This document shows, piece after piece, positions 53,102-64,000 of a stretch of 64,000 nt of DNA; within the stretch, counting starts at the first letter, position 1; the number at the start of each line of letters is the position of its first letter. A model generated the notes under the pieces. The model did no database searches. It was not told where the DNA came from and saw only the letters and a program-made list of their open reading frames with translations. A program made the position numbers and the translations under genes. Source of the DNA: Candidatus Lustribacter sp. Its GTDB lineage: Bacteria > Vulcanimicrobiota > Vulcanimicrobiia > Vulcanimicrobiales > Vulcanimicrobiaceae. The stretch spans positions 4,448,001 through 4,512,000 of the forward strand of contig OZ255842.1 in assembly GCA_965277805.1 (NCBI GenBank), in the 5' to 3' direction.

Positions 53102-54828
53102 AACACGTCATCACCGTGGCGCAACGTATGGATCAAATCGGTCTCGCGCTCGTGGGCCGGACCACTTGCGGCCGTACGCCGAGCCAGGTCTGCCCGGTGC
53201 TCCTCCAATTCGTCGAGCCGCCGCTGCGCATCTCGAAGGGTACGCAAAAGCTCCTCGCCCTCGCGGTCGAGCGAGCTGCGCTCCTGTTCGAATGCAAGTG
53301 CTTCCGAGATCCGGCTGGCAGCATCAGATTGTTCACGCTCAACACGGGCAGTCCCGACAAGAACGTCGCCACCTGAGGAATAAACATCGGCCAAGTCAAT
53401 CCCGTCGCTCGAAAGCAACAGCTCGCGCATTTGATTCGAATGGGCGGTGCCGCGCGATTTAACGATCGTCAAGGTCCGATTGCGCTCGCCGCCACGATTG
53501 GCAAAGCTCAAATGGATCCATGTGTCCGCGATTGTCGATACGCGGGTCGGCGTAGATTCAAGGTCGCCCGCCGGGGGAGGCGCGACGGCAGTAAAGATTG
53601 CCGTGATATTACGTGATTTCATCAGAACGACCAGACGCTCCGTCGTGGCATCGGCGAGATCGCTACCACCAGCCTTAACCAAGGCCGAAATCGGATCGAT
53701 GACAACTCGAGTAGGCTCGTGTGTATCTAGCAGGCGTTCGATGGCCAGATAGTGGTCGTCAGCAATGATACTGCCGGCGGAAAACGACGCCGATACAAAC
53801 AATCCCGCGCTCATGTCATCTGCGACGTCTAATCCAACGGAGCGCACGTCGATCGTCACCTGGTTGGCCGGTTCGTCGAAACCGATGAAGAGGGCACGTT
53901 CTCCGTTACTGGTCCCAGCCTTAAGAAATGCCATACTGAGTGTTGTTTTCGATGTGCCTGGCAGTCCGGAAAGCAAGACCGTGGTACCTTGCCGGTAGCC
54001 GCCGAGCAGCATTCGATCGAGTCGCTCTACCCCGGTGGACAGGCGCCCCAACGGCGACTGAAAGATGGTGTTTGTACGCGTCGGCGTGTTCAAAACCCGA
54101 ATACCGAAGTGCGAGATGTTATATGCGTGCGACCCGCCGAGAAACGGTGCACCCCGCAATTTCATCACGGAAAGCGTGCGCCGTGAAAGTTCGCCGACCA
54201 GCGTTGTTTTAAGGCGGATGACCGCATCCGCGGCGTATTCGACGACGTCGAACCTTGGTGGGAGGCGCTGATCGCTCTCGTCCGCTTTCACCGTCAGTAG
54301 CGCCGTCAAGTTAGCTCCGGTCAGCCAATTGATCAGTCGAATGATTTCGCGTCGCCGGATCGACGGATTTTCCGAAATAGCGAACAGCGCATCGAGACCG
54401 TCGATTGCGATTCTCTTAATACCCTGCTTCGTGACGATCGATGAAGCGATCGATATGAGACCACTCAAATCGAACTCACCAGCTTCAACGGCGTCCTCCG
54501 AAAGCCGGCCGTCCAATAATTGGACGCCGTTTCCGAGTACGTCCGCAAGCGGCCAGGATGCCGCGGGGTAGTTATGCTTGAGCGCGTCCGGCGATTCCTC
54601 AAAAGTAATCATGAGGCCAGGCTCGCCTAATGAAGCAGCGCCGTTAACCAGGTACTGCATTGCGAGGACCGTCTTACCGCTGCCCGGTTCGCCCACGATA
54701 ATGGTCGTGCGACCGGACGGAAAGCCGCCGCACAACACGGCGTCCAAGCCCTTAATCCCGCTCGCAGCAGTCGCTGATACTCCGCGTTCGGCGGCCCATT
54801 CGCTGCGGGAGGCGTCTTCATGCGGCAT
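53098..54828 (-). CDS. kaiC: KaiC-family double-domain ATPase/kinase
   Basis: Two RecA domains (GEPGSGKT/TFEES and GLPGTSKT), VSTIADTW phospho-site region, KSRGTAHSNQMRE. Confidence 0.92.
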   Translation of the reverse strand: MPHEDASRSEWAAERGVSATAASGIKGLDAVLCGGFPSGRTTIIVGEPGSGKTVLAMQYLVNGAASLGEPGLMITFEESPDALKHNYPAASWPLADVLGNGVQLLDGRLSEDAVEAGEFDLSGLISIASSIVTKQGIKRIAIDGLDALFAISENPSIRRREIIRLINWLTGANLTALLTVKADESDQRLPPRFDVVEYAADAVIRLKTTLVGELSRRTLSVMKLRGAPFLGGSHAYNISHFGIRVLNTPTRTNTIFQSPLGRLSTGVERLDRMLLGGYRQGTTVLLSGLPGTSKTTLSMAFLKAGTSNGERALFIGFDEPANQVTIDVRSVGLDVADDMSAGLFVSASFSAGSIIADDHYLAIERLLDTHEPTRVVIDPISALVKAGGSDLADATTERLVVLMKSRNITAIFTAVAPPPAGDLESTPTRVSTIADTWIHLSFANRGGERNRTLTIVKSRGTAHSNQMRELLLSSDGIDLADVYSSGGDVLVGTARVEREQSDAASRISEALAFEQERSSLDREGEELLRTLRDAQRRLDELEEHRADLARRTAASGPAHERETDLIHTLRHGDDVL

Positions 54829-57460
54829 AAGTCACCCCCATGCGACGCAACATCTCTTCAAAAGACTCGGGGCGCGCAACCAAAAAGCCTTGACCGTAGC
54901 GGCAACCATGCTTTAGCAGCCACGCCGCTTGGGCTTCGGTCTCAATGCCCTCTGCGAGCGTAGCGAACCCAAAACGATCAGTGATTCGCAGCAACATTTC
55001 GGCGACCGCAGTATCACGTTCGTCGTCCGGTAAACCGGTAATAAACGATCGATCGATTTTGATCACGTCAACTCGCAAGTCTTTCAGATACGAAAGGGAC
55101 GAATAGCCCGTTCCGAAGTCATCAATGGCGACCTTGATTCCCCATTTACGAAACAGATCGATCGTGCTCATCGAACGTTCTACGTTCTCCATTGCAGCCG
55201 TCTCCGTGACCTCGATCCCAAGGTGATCCACGAGCTTGCCGTCGCCGCGAATCGCCTCGTTCAACTCCGCGATGAAGGCGACATCGTCAAGCATTTGGGC
55301 TGCGACATTGAAATAAATCCGGGCGCCGGGCGGCAGTGAAAGAGCGCTCGAGACGTCATGCACAACCCGCCGAAAGACCCAGCGAGTAACCGCGGCAATC
55401 AAACCATTGCGCTCAGCGAAGTCGATGAATTCCGAGGGCGGCAACCGGCCACGCTCTGGATGGTCCCATCTGACAAGGGCTTCGGCGCCGATGATCGCCC
55501 GCGTCGTCAGATCAAACGTCGGCTGATATTCAAGTAGAAGCTGGTCTTGGGATATAGCATTGCTCAACTCGACCACGCGCAAGTGAGCTTCCTCGAATAT
55601 TTCTTCCATGTGAGCATCGAACATCATCGCGCTCGAACCGCCACGGTCTTTCGCAACCGTGAGCGCGACATCTGCCTTTCGCATCAGGTCCTCGGCACTC
55701 GCACCATCTCGTGGATAGCATGCTCCGCCGAAGGAGGCACCGATCGATAGAAGTTGTGTTCCGTCGCGGTCGCCGGTATGAAAGGGGGCATGAAAGAGGT
55801 CACCGTAGCGCTGAAGTTCGGCCGTCTGACTAGCAAGTTGACTAGCGCGAATCAGCAGCCCGAATTCATCAGCACTCATTCGTGCCACCAAATCGAGTGA
55901 AGAAACGGACGTGAGTGCCGCTGACACCTCAACGAGGACCTCGTCCCCTATCTGATGCCCATGACGTTCATTGATGCGCCGGAACTCGTCGACGTCGACA
56001 AATGCTAGCGTGAACGCTCTGCCCGTTCGAATCTCATCGCGCACAGCTTTGCGGAATTGAACTCGATTCTCGAGTCCGGTGAGAGCGTCGTGTTCGATTT
56101 GAAACTGAATGCGTTCGAATTGCTGCTGCTGCTTAAAACTGCTTGCAAAGAATGAAGCGACGACATCCACATACGCAAGGTCGTCATTTACGAATGGCTC
56201 GTCAAGCATCTTTTCAGGAGACGCAAAGCCGAGGAAATACGTTACTCGACCAATATTAACCGGCGTCCCAATGAAGCTACGCAAGTCAAGAGCGTCGGAA
56301 AGCCGCCCGCTGTCGTCTACTAAGCTCAAATCATTCCATGCCGTCGTGTGCCCTGCGACGAAGAGGCTGTTCTGGAGCATGAAGGCGCGCGGAAACCGCG
56401 CGCCGGCATGGACTGTCGTCGCGAAGCCGCCCGGATCGGCCTCAGATCCGCGCCACGACGTCGCGTCGAAGACGATTTCCTCGCCGTCGAGATGACTCAG
56501 GGTCCCGAACATGCACATCCCAGGTCGCATGGCGGCCGTCGCGATGCCTAAAATCGTTTCGTACTGATCTCCATCGGGCCGCGCTACGTACGAGGCGATC
56601 TCCCACACAGCGCGGATCCGACCCGCGCGTTTGGAGGACTCGTCCTCAACCGCGCTGAGCCGGTATCGCGACATTACAAGCGTTCGTAGCGACGCAACGA
56701 GAACAAACGCGCCGCCGAGCAGCATTAGGGCGCGGCTGGCATAAAAGGCGTCGCTGAAACGCACGGTTAGCGGAGCCAGAAGCGTATCGAGCAAGAGAGC
56801 CGTTAGCGACAGTGTTAGCGCTCGATCGATGATATTCGGCGTTCGCGCAGTAAACGTGCGGATGGCCACCACCGCCAAAAATGCCGCCACCACCGGACCG
56901 ACTTTGCTGCTCGCGACACCGGCCAGCGACGGTTCGCTCACGAGTGGTACCAGCGCGCCTAAGATAAGCGCGGCTAGAACACCAAGTGCGAAGAGAAATG
57001 CGGCGAAAAGGCTGGAGTATATCTGAAAGCGTCGCGTCGGACGGACGTCTTTCTCCACATCACGAGTGAGGATATAAAACAGGGCACCGATACCAGCTGT
57101 GAAGTGCCAGATAATGATGATCCAAACGCCGGTTTGCTGTGGCGACCAGAAGATCGGCGGCGCCGAAGGTAGCAGGGCCGAAACGAACAGCATGATGGTC
57201 ATGAGGCCGGCGTTGACTGCGAACGCAAGGGCCAACACGAATATTGCACGACGTTCCGCCGAATGGCGCCACGTGGCGAAGAGCACAAGTGCCGTAGCGG
57301 CGTAGCCGAGGGCCGTCGCGAACGAGATGACCGGACCGATTGGGGCCAACCGTAGATTCATTGAAGCTGGGAAGTGCGCCATCGCGCCGACGACGGCTGC
57401 GATTCCATACACTAGGACAAGCCCGGGGCCAATTTGGACCAGCCGGCGGGGCAAAGTCAC
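54818..57460 (-). CDS. Membrane sensor (MASE4-like)-GAF-GGDEF-EAL protein
   Basis: About 8 TM helices with WHF motif, HDALTGLENR, degenerate SADEF, intact EAL and DDFGTGYSS. Confidence 0.88.
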   Translation of the reverse strand: MTLPRRLVQIGPGLVLVYGIAAVVGAMAHFPASMNLRLAPIGPVISFATALGYAATALVLFATWRHSAERRAIFVLALAFAVNAGLMTIMLFVSALLPSAPPIFWSPQQTGVWIIIIWHFTAGIGALFYILTRDVEKDVRPTRRFQIYSSLFAAFLFALGVLAALILGALVPLVSEPSLAGVASSKVGPVVAAFLAVVAIRTFTARTPNIIDRALTLSLTALLLDTLLAPLTVRFSDAFYASRALMLLGGAFVLVASLRTLVMSRYRLSAVEDESSKRAGRIRAVWEIASYVARPDGDQYETILGIATAAMRPGMCMFGTLSHLDGEEIVFDATSWRGSEADPGGFATTVHAGARFPRAFMLQNSLFVAGHTTAWNDLSLVDDSGRLSDALDLRSFIGTPVNIGRVTYFLGFASPEKMLDEPFVNDDLAYVDVVASFFASSFKQQQQFERIQFQIEHDALTGLENRVQFRKAVRDEIRTGRAFTLAFVDVDEFRRINERHGHQIGDEVLVEVSAALTSVSSLDLVARMSADEFGLLIRASQLASQTAELQRYGDLFHAPFHTGDRDGTQLLSIGASFGGACYPRDGASAEDLMRKADVALTVAKDRGGSSAMMFDAHMEEIFEEAHLRVVELSNAISQDQLLLEYQPTFDLTTRAIIGAEALVRWDHPERGRLPPSEFIDFAERNGLIAAVTRWVFRRVVHDVSSALSLPPGARIYFNVAAQMLDDVAFIAELNEAIRGDGKLVDHLGIEVTETAAMENVERSMSTIDLFRKWGIKVAIDDFGTGYSSLSYLKDLRVDVIKIDRSFITGLPDDERDTAVAEMLLRITDRFGFATLAEGIETEAQAAWLLKHGCRYGQGFLVARPESFEEMLRRMGVTYAA

Positions 57461-58254
57461 GCAACGACTTTCAGGACGAGCGCAGCGACATCGTCGTGGA
57501 GCTGACGCGATGCGAACTCGTAGGCATAATCGACGATCGCCTCCGCCTGGCGCTCGGCGCTGCGTGCCGCATGTCTCTGCAGTATCTCGATGACCGCGTC
57601 CGCACCTAAGAATCTGCGCTGTTCGTCGCGCGCCTCCGAAAAACCGTCGGTAAATGCCGCAATCGCATCGCCGGGCCGTATTGCGATCGTGCCTTGATCG
57701 AACCCGGCGTCGCTATCCATCAGCCCTATGATCGGGCCGGTCGCCGGAAGTTGCTGTGCACCCAAGGGTGCAAAGAGATATGCCGCTTCGTGACCTGCTG
57801 AAACGTAGTTCAGACTTCGCCGATCGGGTGGTATGATCGCAAAGAAGAGCGTTGCGAAGAACTCTTCGTCACCCTCGAAATCGCTATTCTCAATACAAAG
57901 TCGATTTAGCGCCTGGACGCAACCGCGCGCATCGAGACCAAGTGATGCGTAGCCGCGCAGCGCGTGTTTGGCAAGTCCGGCATTACGTGCCGCTGGAATG
58001 CCATGCCCCGTGATGTCCACGACGGAGAGTGCGGTTGAACCGCCTCCGAAAAAAAAGACGTCGACGACATCGCCCCCGTAGTGGAAGTCGCCCACGGCAC
58101 CGCGATACGCGCGTCCAACGTCAAGACCGGGCAGCTGGCGGACGCTCGGCCGGTAGAGCGCCTCCACAATACGTCGCATTTCACCCTGCAAATGGCTTTC
58201 GGCCACGGGCTCATCGGCCGATTCTCCAGTGAGGCGACGCGCCTGGAAGCTCAT
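57457..58254 (-). CDS. SpoIIE/PP2C-family Ser/Thr phosphatase
   Basis: GGDVVD, DITGHG, TDGFSE and DDVA motifs. ATG 58254 overlaps the crp stop. Confidence 0.88.
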   Translation of the reverse strand: MSFQARRLTGESADEPVAESHLQGEMRRIVEALYRPSVRQLPGLDVGRAYRGAVGDFHYGGDVVDVFFFGGGSTALSVVDITGHGIPAARNAGLAKHALRGYASLGLDARGCVQALNRLCIENSDFEGDEEFFATLFFAIIPPDRRSLNYVSAGHEAAYLFAPLGAQQLPATGPIIGLMDSDAGFDQGTIAIRPGDAIAAFTDGFSEARDEQRRFLGADAVIEILQRHAARSAERQAEAIVDYAYEFASRQLHDDVAALVLKVVA

Positions 58255-58985
58255 TCCCGTATAGACATTTCGAATGCCATCATGCAGGCTTGATAGCATT
58301 CGCATGCGGTGACGCGTAGGAGTTCTAGGTCAAGTATCGTGACGATCCCGCGAGAATACGAGATCGCTCCAGCGCGTTGAACGGCCTCCGTCGCTTCAGA
58401 AACACTTGACCGTGGAACGGCGAGCATGATCGCAAGGAATTCGTCGCTAAGCTTGAACGTCGGCTCGTCAACTCGGTCTGCAGTCATCGCGAGCCATCGC
58501 GCACATCGCTGAGTCACCGAGTGCTTCGCGTTGCACGCCGCGTATTGCTGCGCGCTGAAAAGCGCCGCGCGAACACTCAAATGCATACGCCGCGCGAATA
58601 CCGCGCTGCTTGCCATTCGAGATGCGAATCGTTCGATAGACATTCGCCCGACGGAGCCGCGAACCTGACAAAACGAAGAGCGCTGCGCGCGGGCCGAAGC
58701 GATAACAGCGTCGTACTCAACGAAACCTTCTCTTCCGACGGTCCCAACTTCAATGCTTTCGCCACCCTTGAGCGTGGCCACAACCGACAGCACGGCATTG
58801 ATGGGAAAGTCAACAAAGTCTAGAACGTCATCGGCGGCATGCGTATGCCGATGGGCCTCTAGTGTCACAATCGTAAGATCGGCAAGCAAATCGACGCGAT
58901 CGTTATACGGTAACGCGTCGAGCAGGCGATTTCCGCTGCGAATATTGCCCGCGGCGTCAGGGGATATGGTGGAACCGCGAGGCAC
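58251..58985 (-). CDS. Crp/Fnr-family transcriptional regulator
   Basis: NRLLDAL, GTVGREG and QRCARWL motifs; HTH FLAIMLAVPRSSVS. Confidence 0.88.
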   Translation of the reverse strand: MPRGSTISPDAAGNIRSGNRLLDALPYNDRVDLLADLTIVTLEAHRHTHAADDVLDFVDFPINAVLSVVATLKGGESIEVGTVGREGFVEYDAVIASARAQRSSFCQVRGSVGRMSIERFASRMASSAVFARRMHLSVRAALFSAQQYAACNAKHSVTQRCARWLAMTADRVDEPTFKLSDEFLAIMLAVPRSSVSEATEAVQRAGAISYSRGIVTILDLELLRVTACECYQACMMAFEMSIRE

Positions 58986-59080: not shown

Positions 59081-59192
59081 CTGTTAGCGGGTGTCCAAAT
59101 GATCAGTTTGCGCGTTTGCCTTACTAGGCAACGGCTAACCCCCCGTGGCCTCACGGGGCTCCATCGCATCATCGGAGAACGACTCGAGCGCG

Positions 59193-60173
59193 ATGAGCGT
59201 ACTCGTTACGGGAACTGCCGGCCACCTTGGCGAGGCACTCATGCGTACATTTCGAGCCCGAGGCGAAGCGGCGTTGGGCGTCGATATTCTGAGGTCACCG
59301 TTCACCGATCGTGTCGGCAGTATTTGCGATCGTGAATTCATCCGTGATTGTATGCGCGGTGCGCGCGCGGTTTTGCATACCGCAACGCTGCACAAGCCGC
59401 ACGTCGCGACGCACAGTAAACGTGACTTCGTCGACACGAACGTCACCGGGACGCTCGTCCTCCTCGAGGAAGCCGTCGCGGCCGGTGTCGAGGCCTTCGT
59501 CTATACGAGCACGACGAGCGCGTTCGGAGGAGCGCTCACCGGAGACGGCATCGATGCCGCTTGGATCACCGAAGACGTGCGGCCGATTCCGAAAAATATC
59601 TACGGCGTGACCAAAGTGGCGGCGGAGGATCTCTGCGAGCTGGTGCACCTCGAGCGCCGGTTGCCGGTCATCGTCTTGCGGACGGCGCGATTCTTTCCCG
59701 AAGAAGACGATAACGCAGAGACACGCGCGACGTATACTCTGGCGAACGCGCAGGGGAACGAGATGTCCTATCGGCGCGTCGATATCGCCGACGTCGTGGC
59801 CGCGCACGAGCTGGCGCTCGAAAAAGCGGTGCGACTCGGATTCGGGCGCTACATCATTTCCGCCACGACGCCGTTCGCGCATAGCGACCTGCCCGAGTTG
59901 GGCCGTAATGCGCCGGCCGTTCTGCACTGGCTTTTTCCGACGTCCAAGGACCTTTACGCAGCAAAGGGTTGGACGTTCTTCCCGCGTCTCGACCGCGTGT
60001 ATGTGAACCGAGCCGCCGTTACCGACTTGGAATGGCAGCCGCAGTATGATTTTAAGCACGTCCTCGCATGCCTCGCTGCGGGGACCGATTTTCGCAGTCC
60101 ATTGGCCCTCGAAGTCGGCAGCAAGGGCTATCACGATAGGAGCTTCGCTGAGGGTCCCTATCCGGTCGTCTAA
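59193..60173 (+). CDS. NAD-dependent epimerase/dehydratase family protein
   Basis: TGTAGHLG, TSTTS and YGVTK motifs. Confidence 0.88.
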   Translation: MSVLVTGTAGHLGEALMRTFRARGEAALGVDILRSPFTDRVGSICDREFIRDCMRGARAVLHTATLHKPHVATHSKRDFVDTNVTGTLVLLEEAVAAGVEAFVYTSTTSAFGGALTGDGIDAAWITEDVRPIPKNIYGVTKVAAEDLCELVHLERRLPVIVLRTARFFPEEDDNAETRATYTLANAQGNEMSYRRVDIADVVAAHELALEKAVRLGFGRYIISATTPFAHSDLPELGRNAPAVLHWLFPTSKDLYAAKGWTFFPRLDRVYVNRAAVTDLEWQPQYDFKHVLACLAAGTDFRSPLALEVGSKGYHDRSFAEGPYPVV

Positions 60174-60190
60174 CGCCTTACAACGGACAC

Positions 60191-61081
60191 TTAGGGTCGT
60201 GTTTCCGAAACAGTTATGGCCGCGCCGCGATATTCGCGTGCTGCCGCCGGGCGCGCCCCATGGCACGTCAGTTGAGCGGGCGATTGCGTCTCTGCAAGAA
60301 TCGTGACGTCCACATGACCGAACGGTGCTGAGAGACGCACGGTCGCAGTGTTTCCGTCCACCCGCTCCAAGGTCTCCACCGCAAACGCATCGACCGTGTC
60401 GATAGACAACATCTCGTGAGCGTAAACGATTGCGGCTTGTGCGATGGACGGAAGGCCGATACGCCCACGTTGATGCGCCATGAGAAGTCGCCCGTCATCG
60501 GCGCAATCGGCCAGGGCCGACGCTGCCGACGCGGGGACGCGCCCGTACAAAACACCGGATGGCAAAACGAGCACATTCGCCGCAAAACGGTCGCCGCCCA
60601 GGTGCGTTGTTTCCCAAGCCCGGCCCGGCCGAGCACGATCGAGCGCCTCGACGAGGGGCCGGCCGCGCAGAGCGCAGCACGGATCATGCCGCCCGTGCGT
60701 GCATACCAAGAACAGCGGTGCCGTATCAATCGTTGACGGTGGTCTCAGCGGGAAGCCTGCCTCAAGTTCGGCAGCGAAATACGCTAGGTCGTCGGTGCGC
60801 CACCATTGGACCTTCCCCTCATCGGCGATCCCGACGTGATAGCCGCCGTCCGGCATACCGTGCCCGTGCTCGCCGGGCCGCCGAATGGCTTGCAGTCGCA
60901 TGCCCGCACGCGCCCCCGCGATATCGAGGCGCCTCGCAACGGCCGGGTCGCATCGGCTCTCGAGTAAACCACGCGGTCCCCAAGGGCCGGGCTGATGGAT
61001 CAGCAATACGCGTGATTGAGGCGGCGCGGTGCCGATCATCGAGTCTCCCCGCGCATCCGCCTCTGCTGAACAAAGGATCAC
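60191..61081 (-). CDS. Sucrase/ferredoxin-like protein (thioredoxin-like [2Fe-2S] ferredoxin, Apd1/Aim32 family)
   Basis: CS...GTAP, PGPWG, CTHGRHDPCC, HLGGDRFA and YGR motifs. GTG start overlaps the cupin TGA. Confidence 0.85.
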   Translation of the reverse strand: MILCSAEADARGDSMIGTAPPQSRVLLIHQPGPWGPRGLLESRCDPAVARRLDIAGARAGMRLQAIRRPGEHGHGMPDGGYHVGIADEGKVQWWRTDDLAYFAAELEAGFPLRPPSTIDTAPLFLVCTHGRHDPCCALRGRPLVEALDRARPGRAWETTHLGGDRFAANVLVLPSGVLYGRVPASAASALADCADDGRLLMAHQRGRIGLPSIAQAAIVYAHEMLSIDTVDAFAVETLERVDGNTATVRLSAPFGHVDVTILAETQSPAQLTCHGARPAAAREYRGAAITVSETRP

Positions 61082-62271
61082 GCCGGAACGAGAACTCCGG
61101 CACGCACCAGATCCGCGAGCACATGCACGCACGCTTCAATGTCACTGCCCGGCAACGTTTCGGCAGCGACGACCGATCCGGTTATTGCGCTGCGAACCAC
61201 ATGAAGAGCGGTATTCGGGAAACGGATGTCTTTGTCGGGCAGGTGCAGGATGCACTGCTCATCGCCAAAGTCGAGCCTTACATGTAAGCCTGGTCGCAAA
61301 CGAAGACGCGTAGCGGGTACCAATGACGTCGCCACGACGAATTGAGCGAGCGGGGAAAGCGGCTCCGGCCGCGTTGCGGCGTCGAGTGCCCGGCCAATGC
61401 CGGCCGTCACCTTTGCAACGTCGATGCGCGCTAGAGCGGCGCGCAAGGCCTCGACCGTGGCTGCAAATTCGTAATCGAGCGCTGGTGCTTCCCTGAAATT
61501 CACGCCCGCGGGCAGCGATCCACGCAGCGAGACGTCCTCTGAAAGCGTTGCGAAAATCTGTTCCACGAGCGCCATGCGCGTTATGGGATGGATACCGATC
61601 GTCAGATGGCCGGAAATCTCATCCAGCGAAGTCGCCGCATGAATATAACCACGCGGTAAATACAGGACGTCGCCTGCCTCCAGAATGATGTCGAGAAGCG
61701 GCAACTCGCGCGCACGAGCAACAACCGCGGACTGCCGCTTCTGCCAAGATTGCTCGCGCAAGGGTGAAGTCAGGACCGGTTGATGGACCCGCCAATGCTT
61801 TCTTCCCGCGAATTGTAGCAGAAACACGTCGTGGACATCGTAGTGCGGCGTGAGGCCCTGGCTCATCGGCGGTGTGACATAGGCATTCACCTGCGCCGGG
61901 TGTCCCAATTGCTCAGTCAGGGCGACGGCGAAGATCTCAATAGGCTCCCACGTGCGATGCAGGCCCTGCAGCACGATCGTCGCGCCGGCGCTGAATTCCG
62001 CGAGCACCTTATCATCAGCTATTTGATCGGAAATCTCGGCGCCGGCACCACCGCTGCGCGTGTAGCGAGCAGACGGGATGACATTGCCATCGCGCGTCAT
62101 CCGCAAAAACGGCGTGCGCAAGCCGCGGCGCGAAAGTAATTCGTCTACCGCTTCACTATTGAACAGATCGGCGAAGCTCTCGTTCTGCGCCGAGGAACGG
62201 TGAAGTCGCGGCGCAGAACCCCAGTGTTCCGCGTTGAATCTGGCGAGAGGTAATCCGGTGAGGCGTTGCAC
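61078..62271 (-). CDS. JmjC/Cupin_4 (YcfD/NO66-like) 2OG-Fe(II) protein hydroxylase
   Basis: NAYVTP, PHYDVHD (HxD), GRKHW and GDVLYLPRGYIH motifs. Start at GTG 62271 is inferred. Confidence 0.87.
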   Translation of the reverse strand: MQRLTGLPLARFNAEHWGSAPRLHRSSAQNESFADLFNSEAVDELLSRRGLRTPFLRMTRDGNVIPSARYTRSGGAGAEISDQIADDKVLAEFSAGATIVLQGLHRTWEPIEIFAVALTEQLGHPAQVNAYVTPPMSQGLTPHYDVHDVFLLQFAGRKHWRVHQPVLTSPLREQSWQKRQSAVVARARELPLLDIILEAGDVLYLPRGYIHAATSLDEISGHLTIGIHPITRMALVEQIFATLSEDVSLRGSLPAGVNFREAPALDYEFAATVEALRAALARIDVAKVTAGIGRALDAATRPEPLSPLAQFVVATSLVPATRLRLRPGLHVRLDFGDEQCILHLPDKDIRFPNTALHVVRSAITGSVVAAETLPGSDIEACVHVLADLVRAGVLVPA

Positions 62272-62311
62272 CGGATTACCACCGCCCGTTAATGGTCTGG
62301 CGCTCGCGAGG

Positions 62312-62554
62312 CTAGGCGCCTTTGTCAGCCCCGCCATCAGCCCCGCCGTCCGGGTCGGCGCCTGCATCCGCTCCGCCGTCGGCTCCGCCGTCCGGATCGG
62401 CACCGGCGTCTGCGCCGCCGTCGGCGCCACCGTCAGGATCGGCTCCGGTGTTCGCGCCGCCGTCTGCGCCGCCGTCGTGGACACCGGGTGTTCCGGACGC
62501 ACCGCCGTCTTCCGGACCCTCGGTGCCGGCATCTAAATCGTCATCATCAGCCAT
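62312..62554 (-). CDS. 80-aa Asp/Gly-rich tandem-repeat peptide; candidate precursor or substrate of the adjacent hydroxylase
   Basis: RBS GAGGT; MADDDDLDAGTEGPEDGGASGTPGVH-(DGGADGGAxxGADP)x3-DGGADGGADKGA*; repeats differ mostly at synonymous positions. Confidence 0.8.
   Translation of the reverse strand: MADDDDLDAGTEGPEDGGASGTPGVHDGGADGGANTGADPDGGADGGADAGADPDGGADGGADAGADPDGGADGGADKGA
62315..62476 (-). repeat. 42-bp (14-codon) imperfect tandem repeat, about 3.9 copies
   Basis: Encodes DGGADGGA(N/D)(T/A/K)GA(DP). Confidence 0.85.
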
Positions 62555-62666
62555 GGACTTTACCTCAAGATTGGGAAAGGAATCGATATCGAAGCAGCAG
62601 GCACTCCGTTCGCCATAGCTCGATGCCCGTGAACTCATGCTGTGAAACTCGTGAGGAGTCGAATTC

Positions 62667-63194
62667 TTGGACATCACACAACTCATTCTGGACGACCATC
62701 ACGAACAACGGCGTCTCTTTGCGATTCTCGAGCAAATCGACGCGGCGGACGTCGGTGCGCTCGAAGCGATCTGGCGACGGCTAGCAACGTTTCTCGAGGT
62801 CCATGCGCTGGCTGAGGAAGACATCTTCTATCCGGCACTCCTCCGTCTCGGCGCCGGTACGGTAAAGGTAGCGAGCGCGGAAGACGAGACCGAAGATGCG
62901 ATTAAGGATCACAACGAGATTCGTGATGCCGTTGCGTCTGCCAATCGCCTGAAGGTTGGGACCGAACAATGGTACGTTGCCGTTGCTGCGGCAAACGAAG
63001 CGAACGGTGATCATATGGCGGAAGAGGAGCGCGAAGGTTTGACAGACCTGCGTGCTCACGCAGATCTTGCGACGCGGCACGATCTAGGCGTGCGCTTTGC
63101 CGTCTTTGAAGCCGAGCACGTTACCGGGGTGCGTGCCGTCGACAGAGATCCCAAGGCCTACATCGCGGATCATTCAGCGCCCAGCACGTCGTGA
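62667..63194 (+). CDS. Hemerythrin/HHE cation-binding domain protein
   Basis: GAGGAG RBS; DDHH, HALAEE..FYP, DHNE and HMAEEE motifs. Confidence 0.88.
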   Translation: MDITQLILDDHHEQRRLFAILEQIDAADVGALEAIWRRLATFLEVHALAEEDIFYPALLRLGAGTVKVASAEDETEDAIKDHNEIRDAVASANRLKVGTEQWYVAVAAANEANGDHMAEEEREGLTDLRAHADLATRHDLGVRFAVFEAEHVTGVRAVDRDPKAYIADHSAPSTS

Positions 63195-63230: not shown

Positions 63231-64000
63231 TCAACACGAGTGACTAAGCGGGTGGTGCCGCATCTCGCGCATGTGCTCGACGACGGTACGCGCCGGAAAT
63301 CGTGGTTCACCACCCTCGGGAAGACACGTCGGCACGCATTCCACGATTTCGTCGTAGCCCGGATCGAAGAACGTCGGCATCGAGTAGCGATCGCGGCCGC
63401 TCGTGTTACGAGTGACCCGGTGCATCGGCGAGCGGTAGGCACCGCCGGTATAGCGGACCATCAACTCACCGAGAATGATAACGAACGTGTCCGCGATTGG
63501 TGGTATTGAGTGCCACACGCGGTCTGCGTCGCGGATCTCGAGGCCGCCGACGTCGTCCTGGGCGAGGATCGTGAGCATACCCCAGTCAAAATGCGCGCCG
63601 GCGCCGCGCGCTGATGCGGAGGCGCCGGCAAGTGACGGATAGCGGAAGAGCTGCGTATACACCAGCGGCTCGCGCAGCGCAGCGTCGAAGAACGTTGCCG
63701 GCAGATCGAGCGATTGCGCAAGAACGTGCGCAAGGCGGCACCCGACGCGCGTCATCGCCTCAACCCAGGCTTCCATCTGTGCGCGAAAATGCAGGGGCAT
63801 TGACGGCCAGCGATTCGTGCCGGTGTTGGGATAGTCGGCAACCACATGAAGGTGATCCGGCGGAAGATCCGGCCCCATGATGAAGCCTTCTTTGAGATCG
63901 CCCGGTGCATCGGCGTCGATCGTCTGGGTGCCGAGTGGTTCGTAGCCGCGAAACGCGGCTCCGGGCCTGACCGCGATCGCATGTTTTACCGCGTCGTCCA
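63231..64000 (-). CDS. Isopenicillin-N-synthase-family 2OG-Fe(II) oxygenase (start lies beyond the window)
   Basis: FRGY...DLKEG, AHFDWG (HxD), MHRV and RYS motifs. Confidence 0.9.
   Translation of the reverse strand, partial: DDAVKHAIAVRPGAAFRGYEPLGTQTIDADAPGDLKEGFIMGPDLPPDHLHVVADYPNTGTNRWPSMPLHFRAQMEAWVEAMTRVGCRLAHVLAQSLDLPATFFDAALREPLVYTQLFRYPSLAGASASARGAGAHFDWGMLTILAQDDVGGLEIRDADRVWHSIPPIADTFVIILGELMVRYTGGAYRSPMHRVTRNTSGRDRYSMPTFFDPGYDEIVECVPTCLPEGGEPRFPARTVVEHMREMRHHPLSHSC

Follow-up and report, generated by a model that had tools for sequence, protein, structure and literature searches.

The closest described relatives of the enzyme considered here are the ribosomal oxygenases, or ROX proteins (human NO66 and MINA53, YcfD from Escherichia coli and the YcfD-like enzyme from Rhodothermus), JmjC-type Fe(II)/2-oxoglutarate (2OG) oxygenases that hydroxylate histidine or arginine residues in basic ribosomal proteins. 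Where ROX reactions have been solved, side chains are hydroxylated at C3, and, to our knowledge, ROX-type protein hydroxylases are known only from ribosomal proteins. In a 64,000-nucleotide stretch of the genome of Candidatus Lustribacter sp. (contig OZ255842.1, positions 4,448,001 to 4,512,000; this whole stretch is referred to below as the window), a ROX-type oxygenase is encoded by the second of three genes, all located on the minus strand. The enzyme shares with the ROX proteins the JmjC_2 domain, the HxD...H triad and a full-length fit over three domains, but its setting is different: an Asp-rich repeat peptide gene precedes it, and a gene for a ferredoxin-like protein of the Suc_Fer-like family follows it. 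This gene context points to the acidic peptide, rather than a ribosomal protein, as the substrate of the oxygenase. In the literature searched (CC-licensed full text in PMC and bioRxiv), there is no report of ROX genes adjoining their own substrate gene and no description of this cassette, although supplementary tables of papers on genome mining for peptides that are synthesized by ribosomes and then modified post-translationally (RiPPs) may list it.

The theme of a ribosomal peptide with a tailoring JmjC hydroxylase has been described in RiPP biosynthesis. CzlI of the curacozole pathway (PMC11575548) and BipG of the biphenomycin pathway (PMC12707348) are JmjC Fe/2OG hydroxylases acting on ribosomal precursor peptides that are encoded nearby; the top structural neighbor of CzlI is YxbC, not NO66 (PMC11575548). 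The locus in the window resembles these two in that a JmjC enzyme gene lies near a ribosomal peptide gene, the hydroxylation of the peptide being a prediction in our case. The CzlI and BipG genes, however, lie in clusters of several enzymes that include cyclases, proteases and transporters, and a single Phe or Orn is the target, whereas the cassette has neither a protease nor an exporter; its putative substrate is acidic and multivalent, and it encodes a ferredoxin-like partner. Another parallel is SmaO, an Fe/2OG oxygenase that makes beta-hydroxyaspartate on a RiPP precursor, after which a second iron enzyme acts (PMC12186529). The SmaO/SmaX cascade and the cassette have in common the pairing of an oxygenase with a second iron-type protein, with Asp as the presumed target in the cassette; unlike the cassette, which combines a thioredoxin-like ferredoxin with tens of repeats, this cascade employs an HD-domain oxygenase as the second enzyme and modifies single Asp sites. 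The system in the window appears to belong to the same general theme, represented by an enzyme of the ROX type and a putative substrate that is acidic and multivalent, with a ferredoxin as partner and without genes for processing.

A separate peptide gene linked to the oxygenase gene

A scan of one genome per prokaryotic species identifies at least 575 relatives of the JmjC protein, of which the best 80 were examined together with the ortholog from the same genus (L004), for a total of 81 loci. A repeat open reading frame (ORF), that is, one with at least five D-[GSA]-[GSA]-[ASGT] motifs on the same strand just upstream of JmjC, is present in 78 of the 81 loci, with a gap of 4 to 311 nt or, in two loci, an overlap with the JmjC start; in the other three, the upstream sequence amounts to only 15, 67 and 123 nt. 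Among control windows of equal size located elsewhere in the same loci, 1 of 121 reaches even four motifs. A Suc_Fer homolog is detected downstream of JmjC in 77 of the 81 loci (tblastn), and one of the misses corresponds to a contig end. In L068, this homolog is found about 1 kb downstream of JmjC, so that something is inserted between the two genes. Clustering of all ORFs of at least 90 amino acids (aa) from 82 loci yields JmjC (82 loci) and the Suc_Fer-like protein (76 loci), followed by the next real-gene cluster with 25 loci; the remaining clusters, which cover 25 loci at most, look like lineage synteny. No conserved cluster of protease, exporter or transporter ORFs is found among the 82 loci, and the cassette neighbors in Actinomycetota are of the housekeeping type.

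Most of the best 80 loci belong to Actinomycetota. Of 301 genomes sampled evenly across Actinomycetota, 24 encode a JmjC ortholog (E-value of 1e-80 or better), a count that includes two unpublished genomes (G315 and G151) and becomes 22 of 299 without them. Eighteen of these 24 loci, none of them from G315 or G151, were examined: 17 contain an Asp-rich repeat ORF 4-74 nt upstream of JmjC, and the remaining one (L116) contains an acidic ORF without clear repeats. In the lineage of the window, an ortholog is present in 1 of 60 related genomes (G003), and the other 10 matches are paralogs with about 25-32% identity; none of 15 loci encoding such paralogs reaches four motifs. The genome of the window also encodes a second JmjC paralog (L002, G000:C1:1710942-1712102) that is 29% identical, occupies a 667-aa open frame and has no Asp-rich peptide ORF nearby. 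The order and adjacency of the peptide and JmjC genes hold down to about 36% identity between JmjC proteins while the repeat sequence changes. An earlier note on this DNA, prepared from the sequence alone, had proposed a neighborhood search for repeat ORFs beside JmjC and Suc_Fer genes and mentioned similar trios from actinobacteria; the search bears out the co-occurrence, the actinobacterial trios exist, and the absence of a protease or exporter that was remarked on in the window extends to the conserved surroundings of the cassette. By genome comparison, the cassette is a small precursor-like gene beside a putative modifying enzyme gene, the peptide gene co-occurring with both enzyme genes essentially without exception. 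It is encoded in many soil bacteria and occurs in both Actinomycetota and Eremiobacterota, and its chemistry has no published description in the literature searched.

The pattern of substitutions indicates that the peptide frame is translated and is a separate gene. Compared with the 93%-identical ortholog locus L004, the peptide gene has eight synonymous differences but just one that is non-synonymous, besides a single whole-codon indel. Eight close pairs of equal length from other lineages (four more pairs were excluded as too diverged) show 54, 55 and 234 differences at codon positions 1, 2 and 3, respectively, and 185 synonymous versus 90 non-synonymous codon changes. A Shine-Dalgarno (SD)-like purine motif precedes the chosen start in 71 related loci with a complete peptide, and 76 of the 78 peptide ORFs end with a stop codon ahead of JmjC, the other two overlapping the JmjC start (gaps of -23 and -92). 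The notion that the repeat ORF is no gene but mere repeat DNA or an N-terminal extension of JmjC, as in several database gene calls, derives some appeal from the JmjC frame of the window, which remains open through the repeat DNA (a 484-aa ORF, 61078-62532, minus strand), and from several database homologs that are called at 481-494 aa, with Pro/Thr/Ala-rich N-terminal extensions. These extensions, however, are the repeat DNA read in another frame, and alignments of homologs to JmjC begin only at about the GTG at 62271. The third-position bias and the synonymous excess in the Asp/Gly/Ala frame already contradict the non-gene interpretation, as do the SD motif and the start and stop codons that the peptide ORF has of its own. 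The frame offset from the peptide ORF to JmjC is 0, 1 and 2 in 17, 24 and 36 loci, respectively; such variability implies that JmjC does not include the peptide as an N-terminal extension and that the fusion is not conserved. Together with the start of the homolog alignments and the third-position bias, this rules out the extension, and the probability that the repeat ORF is not a gene appears negligible. Gene callers nevertheless often lengthen the oxygenase wrongly at its N terminus and thereby absorb the peptide gene, which is systematically hidden by this mis-annotation. In six loci (L025, L035, L040, L048, L072 and L091), the peptide ORF holds or enters an apparent other-frame repeat or extends over the start of JmjC, which reflects either true variation or errors of assembly or frame within the repeat.

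The peptide of the window includes 20 Asp, 2 Glu, 1 Lys and 1 His, with nine DGGA units in 80 aa. The 72 complete peptides range from 60 to 183 aa (median 88.5) and consist of 35.8% Gly, 18.8% Ala and 18.6% Asp, along with other residues that do not include Cys or Trp. In the 66 of these peptides that lack frameshift-like tails, the median net charge is -18.5, motifs start with 832 of the 1161 Asp residues, and His is missing from 20 peptides, Lys from 46, Arg from 41 and Cys from all 66. The repeat units are homogenized within each peptide. In a distant branch (JmjC about 34-39% identical to that of the window), DGGAD is replaced by DADGTD and, in one locus, by DADA; on this comparison, the repeat sequence drifts, and Asp alternating with small residues is retained. 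Histidine was rejected as a universal target given its absence from 20 of the 66 peptides, and the importance of Gly or of an Asp-Gly dipeptide as an essential feature is weakened by the DADA-type repeat of the single distant locus. Of the 72 peptides, 53 contain the pattern [DE]x[DE][IMVLF], usually followed by Thr, among their first 16 residues, and none contains it beyond residue 16; 14 of the 18 further actinobacterial loci have it as well.

Much of what had been read directly from the window holds: the 80-aa peptide gene has its own ribosome-binding site as well as the 20 Asp and nine DGGA units, the roughly four 14-aa repeats correspond to a 42-nt period, and both the 40-bp spacing before the oxygenase gene and the GTGA coupling of the enzyme genes agree with the coordinates (the JmjC start is the GTG at 62271, 40 nt downstream of the peptide stop, and the Suc_Fer-like GTG at 61081 overlaps the JmjC TGA at 61080-61078). 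The 26-aa leader of the earlier note does not survive the comparison with homologs, in which a first repeat unit recurs after an N-terminal acidic motif of about 10 residues, and this short motif is the conserved candidate for recognition. Overall, the genomic predictions of that interpretation are supported, and its leader/core picture has to be modified.

No Pfam family is identified for any of 50 peptides at E-values up to 1, and RTX/beta-roll repeat models, such as HemolysinCabind, are not matched by these 50 peptides either. An NCBIfam search started with the peptide produces chance-level rows only, a PDB sequence search detects no relative, and the ESM Atlas contains only unnamed actinobacterial clusters. 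Neither a signal peptide nor a cleavage motif is evident in the peptide, which is probably disordered. Database copies, those from named organisms being found in Amycolatopsis, Streptomyces albidoflavus, Aeromicrobium and Klenkia, are labeled “hypothetical protein” or “BatC protein”, the second name being that of UniRef and of NCBI records of older date; its origin on some of these members could not be traced.

The GTG start of JmjC (62271-62269) is contained in the 5' arm of a hairpin located between the peptide and JmjC genes (Table 1). The 111-nt context of this hairpin has a folding energy of -42.1 kcal/mol (z of -2.21), with 5 of 200 dinucleotide shuffles being equally stable. In the related loci, the region that begins at the stop of the peptide gene and reaches into the start of JmjC shows z below -2 in 49 of 77 cases (median z of -2.73), a rough figure obtained with 30 mononucleotide shuffles per locus that keep only base composition. 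The hairpin is probably an attenuator or a mask of the start codon that favors the peptide over enzyme output.

The oxygenase and the Suc_Fer-like protein

A Pfam search with the JmjC protein identifies JmjC_2 (PF08007) with an E-value of 2.6e-27 and a score of 95.3 bits against the threshold of 22, and Cupin_8 with an E-value of 1.6e-08. A PDB profile search started with the JmjC family detects NO66 (E-value of 8.2e-29) as well as MINA53, the Rhodothermus cupin-4 protein and YcfD, and aligns the triad residues and K158 of JmjC to the NO66 motif. None of the 81 aligned homologs deviates at H143, D145 or H211, so that the intact HxD...H triad noticed earlier in the window is common to all of them; the same holds for K158, which we take to be the 2OG-binding lysine, and for the family-specific H147 and D148 (81 of 81). 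In Foldseek searches, the AlphaFold model of JmjC (pLDDT 93.2) aligns along its full length with NO66 (about 450 columns, TMq 0.73), and next in rank come MINA53, YcfD and the Rhodothermus enzyme; within the structural alignment, no more than about 21-22% of the residues are identical to NO66. As judged from this model, JmjC has the whole three-domain ROX architecture that consists of the JmjC domain, a helical dimerization domain and a C-terminal winged helix. An annotation gap exists in that all three cassette proteins go under generic or misleading names, such as “hypothetical”, “BatC protein” or “NO66”.

The third protein belongs to the Suc_Fer-like family of Pfam (PF06999) with an E-value of 1.4e-15 and a score of 58.3 bits against the cut-off of 34.9. 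A Foldseek search with its model (pLDDT 94.4) reveals similarity of the central domain to the Aquifex thioredoxin-like [2Fe-2S] ferredoxin Fd4 (E-value of 6.8e-04; TMt of 0.67-0.74 for 1f37 and 1m2a), and further to FeSI of Azotobacter and to subunits of the NuoE type. The two extra domains, formed by the N- and C-terminal parts of the model, have no Foldseek match in PDB, and a PDB sequence search with this protein yields only chance-level rows. Among 65 homologs (numbered on the translation that starts one codon upstream, at 61084), C128, C136, C137 and H161 are invariant, position 165 is occupied by D in 47, by E in 9 and by C in 9, and Cys5 and Cys274 are kept in 63 each. The family, the thioredoxin-like ferredoxin core and the CX8C half-motif (C128...C137, 65 of 65) are shared with Apd1 and Aim32, PF06999 proteins for which the ligand motif is CX8C...HX3H (PMC8482512). 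The protein of the cassette differs from these in the replacement of the HX3H half by HX3(D/E/C), so that it lacks the bis-histidinyl signature, in the two extra domains, and in the near-invariant extra cysteines 5 and 274. From the model and the alignment, the third protein is a Suc_Fer-like protein with a thioredoxin-like ferredoxin core and an unusual fourth-ligand position, predicted to be of the [2Fe-2S] type.

Possible hydroxylation of the peptide and alternative explanations

That the peptide is JmjC's own multivalent substrate and is hydroxylated on Asp is, in our assessment of the genomic evidence, a proposition with even chances of being right or wrong. Under the scheme that we infer for the binding, the reaction, its target residue, the role of the ferredoxin and the function of the product, a small, strongly anionic peptide with an N-terminal acidic-hydrophobic motif and subsequent Asp-rich small-residue repeats would be recognized by the JmjC Fe(II)/2OG oxygenase, probably via the N-terminal motif, and hydroxylated at many positions. 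The likeliest site would be C3 of the repeat aspartates, which would result in a poly(beta-hydroxy-Asp) peptide; Asp appears to be the simplest target because it is the only modifiable residue common to every repeat type. Among the 2OG oxygenases, FIH and AspH hydroxylate Asp/Asn. The ferredoxin-like protein would most likely supply electrons, either so that the iron of the oxygenase stays reduced during many turnovers or for a second redox step, and the hairpin over the oxygenase start codon would probably hold the peptide output above that of the enzyme. The product most likely would be an uncut intracellular polyanion, for example, a metal-binding one, because there is no linked protease or exporter. 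In its fullest form, the proposal would be that of a widespread ROX branch with its own encoded multivalent substrate, which would be converted to an intracellular, uncut poly(beta-hydroxy-aspartate) with a degree of hydroxylation that would vary with O2, Fe(II) and 2OG, and that could accordingly buffer or store metal in a tunable manner or act as an oxygen/iron “counter”, without a protease or exporter and with a new Cys2-His-carboxylate thioredoxin-like ferredoxin; we put this form forward as a speculation that is probably incorrect. If hydroxylation of the peptide is real, bacterial protein hydroxylation would extend past ribosomal proteins, with a new substrate class for JmjC enzymes, the bacterial Suc_Fer-like proteins would gain their first functional context, and the system may yield a genetically encoded poly-hydroxy-acid metal ligand.

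Several observations weigh against this proposal. The closest characterized JmjC relatives have basic ribosomal proteins, and not acidic peptides, as their substrates. Furthermore, the coupled cycle of 2OG oxygenases requires no electron donor from outside, which makes the role of the ferredoxin a conjecture. The N-terminal motif pattern has no match in 19 of the 72 peptides, three loci with downstream sequence give no Suc_Fer match to the query used here, and the hairpin is not significant in 28 of the 77 loci, where the shuffles preserve composition only. The sole RNA trace of the cassette is one exact 177-nt contig from a soil metatranscriptome that covers positions 60576-60752 in the Suc_Fer-like gene and may be a DNA carry-over; on the peptide repeat, the soil RNA library has only short, imperfect pieces, and the three full-length matches in the RNA search look like the source DNA. 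A prediction of the complex between JmjC and the peptide, each with its own alignment, gives a score of 0.00 and weighs neither way.

The chief rival to the modified-peptide proposal is that JmjC hydroxylates a ribosomal protein, or another protein of the cell, in the conventional manner, and that the peptide has an accessory role, such as that of a pseudo-substrate or inhibitor, of a chaperone that masks the basic surface where substrates bind, or of an Fe(II) donor. This would be in keeping with the full ROX architecture and with the activity of the closest solved relatives, NO66, MINA53 and YcfD, all of which act on ribosomal proteins, and a polyanion plausibly could bind to an enzyme built for basic substrates. 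Yet the strict co-occurrence, the peptide-first gene order and the attenuator-like hairpin better fit a product that is needed in excess, the variation of peptide length and repeat number (60-183 aa) would be odd for a fixed stoichiometry, and JmjC paralogs from the same lineage do without such a peptide. On balance, we regard an accessory role of the peptide as unlikely.

Less probable still is that the peptide is the precursor of a secreted RiPP natural product, for instance, a metallophore, with the repeats serving as multiple cores that would be cut and exported by enzymes encoded elsewhere. Multi-core RiPP precursors have homogenized repeat units, as do these peptides, and the conserved N-terminal motif could serve as a leader; however, the JmjC and Suc_Fer-like genes are the only ones conserved among the flanking ORFs of the 82 loci, and both the lack of an evident signal peptide or cleavage motif and the housekeeping-type neighbors in Actinomycetota argue against secretion. 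We assign an even lower probability to the possibility that the peptide works unmodified, as a polyanionic Ca or Fe buffer or a disordered protein, with both enzymes acting elsewhere and merely being co-transcribed. The composition alone (about 19% Asp, median net charge as given above) would suffice for cation binding, but under this explanation gene order and adjacency would hardly be expected to persist to about 36% JmjC identity despite the change of repeats, and the conserved non-repeat N-terminal motif would be left unexplained.

Origin and surroundings of the locus

When 94 JmjC sequences are placed in a FastTree phylogeny with the distant branch as the root, the protein of the window, its same-genus ortholog, three sequences labeled as Eremiobacterota (Vulcanimicrobiota) and one labeled “uncultured bacterium” form a single clade with support of 99. 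This clade is the sister group of Allobranchiibius and Marmoricola (support 99), within a 44-row clade (support 95) that otherwise consists of Actinomycetota. Because of this nesting and the patchy presence of the cassette in the genus of the window, the tree suggests an ancient transfer of the cassette from Actinomycetota into Eremiobacterota. The GC content of the cassette (0.60-0.66) barely differs from that of the flanks, and therefore there is no signal of recent transfer. No ortholog was found on plasmids, where the only matches are paralogs of about 32% identity on Streptomyces megaplasmids. The exact 177-nt contig from the soil metatranscriptome hints at a near-identical organism in that soil.

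Table 1. Features of the cassette and of the adjacent genes (positions in the window)
Feature	Position	Strand	Basis or remark
Shine-Dalgarno-like GAGG	62563-62566	minus	8 nt upstream of the peptide ATG
Acidic Asp/Gly/Ala repeat peptide gene (P0001), 80 aa	62312-62554	minus	ORF, ATG at 62554
Tandem repeat DNA, period 42 nt, 3.6 copies, encoding 14-aa units	62324-62476		Tandem Repeats Finder
Perfect 12-bp stem with 8-nt loop, between peptide and JmjC genes	62249-62280	minus	Folding
JmjC/Cupin_4 2OG oxygenase, ROX type, 397 aa	61078-62271	minus	Pfam, PDB profile, Foldseek
Suc_Fer-like protein gene, thioredoxin-like ferredoxin core	60191-61081	minus	Pfam, Foldseek
Epimerase-family gene, convergent with the cassette	59145-60173	plus	Pfam
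Hemerythrin-domain gene, divergent from the cassette	62667-63194	plus	Pfam

A scan of the region for promoters and terminators finds sites in numbers not above those in shuffled sequences. A terminator-like stem with a T-rich tail is located at the junction of the JmjC stop and the Suc_Fer-like start (61079-61104, minus strand). Next after the hemerythrin gene, a 2OG-Fe(II) oxygenase gene (63231-63998, minus strand) extends past the end of the window; these two neighbors are O2/Fe-related, yet neither is kept beside the cassette in the other loci. On the other side, a signaling cluster (54818-58985, minus strand) encodes an 880-aa large membrane protein that resembles GGDEF-EAL proteins by sequence, together with a SpoIIE-type phosphatase and a Crp-type HTH regulator, both identified with Pfam.

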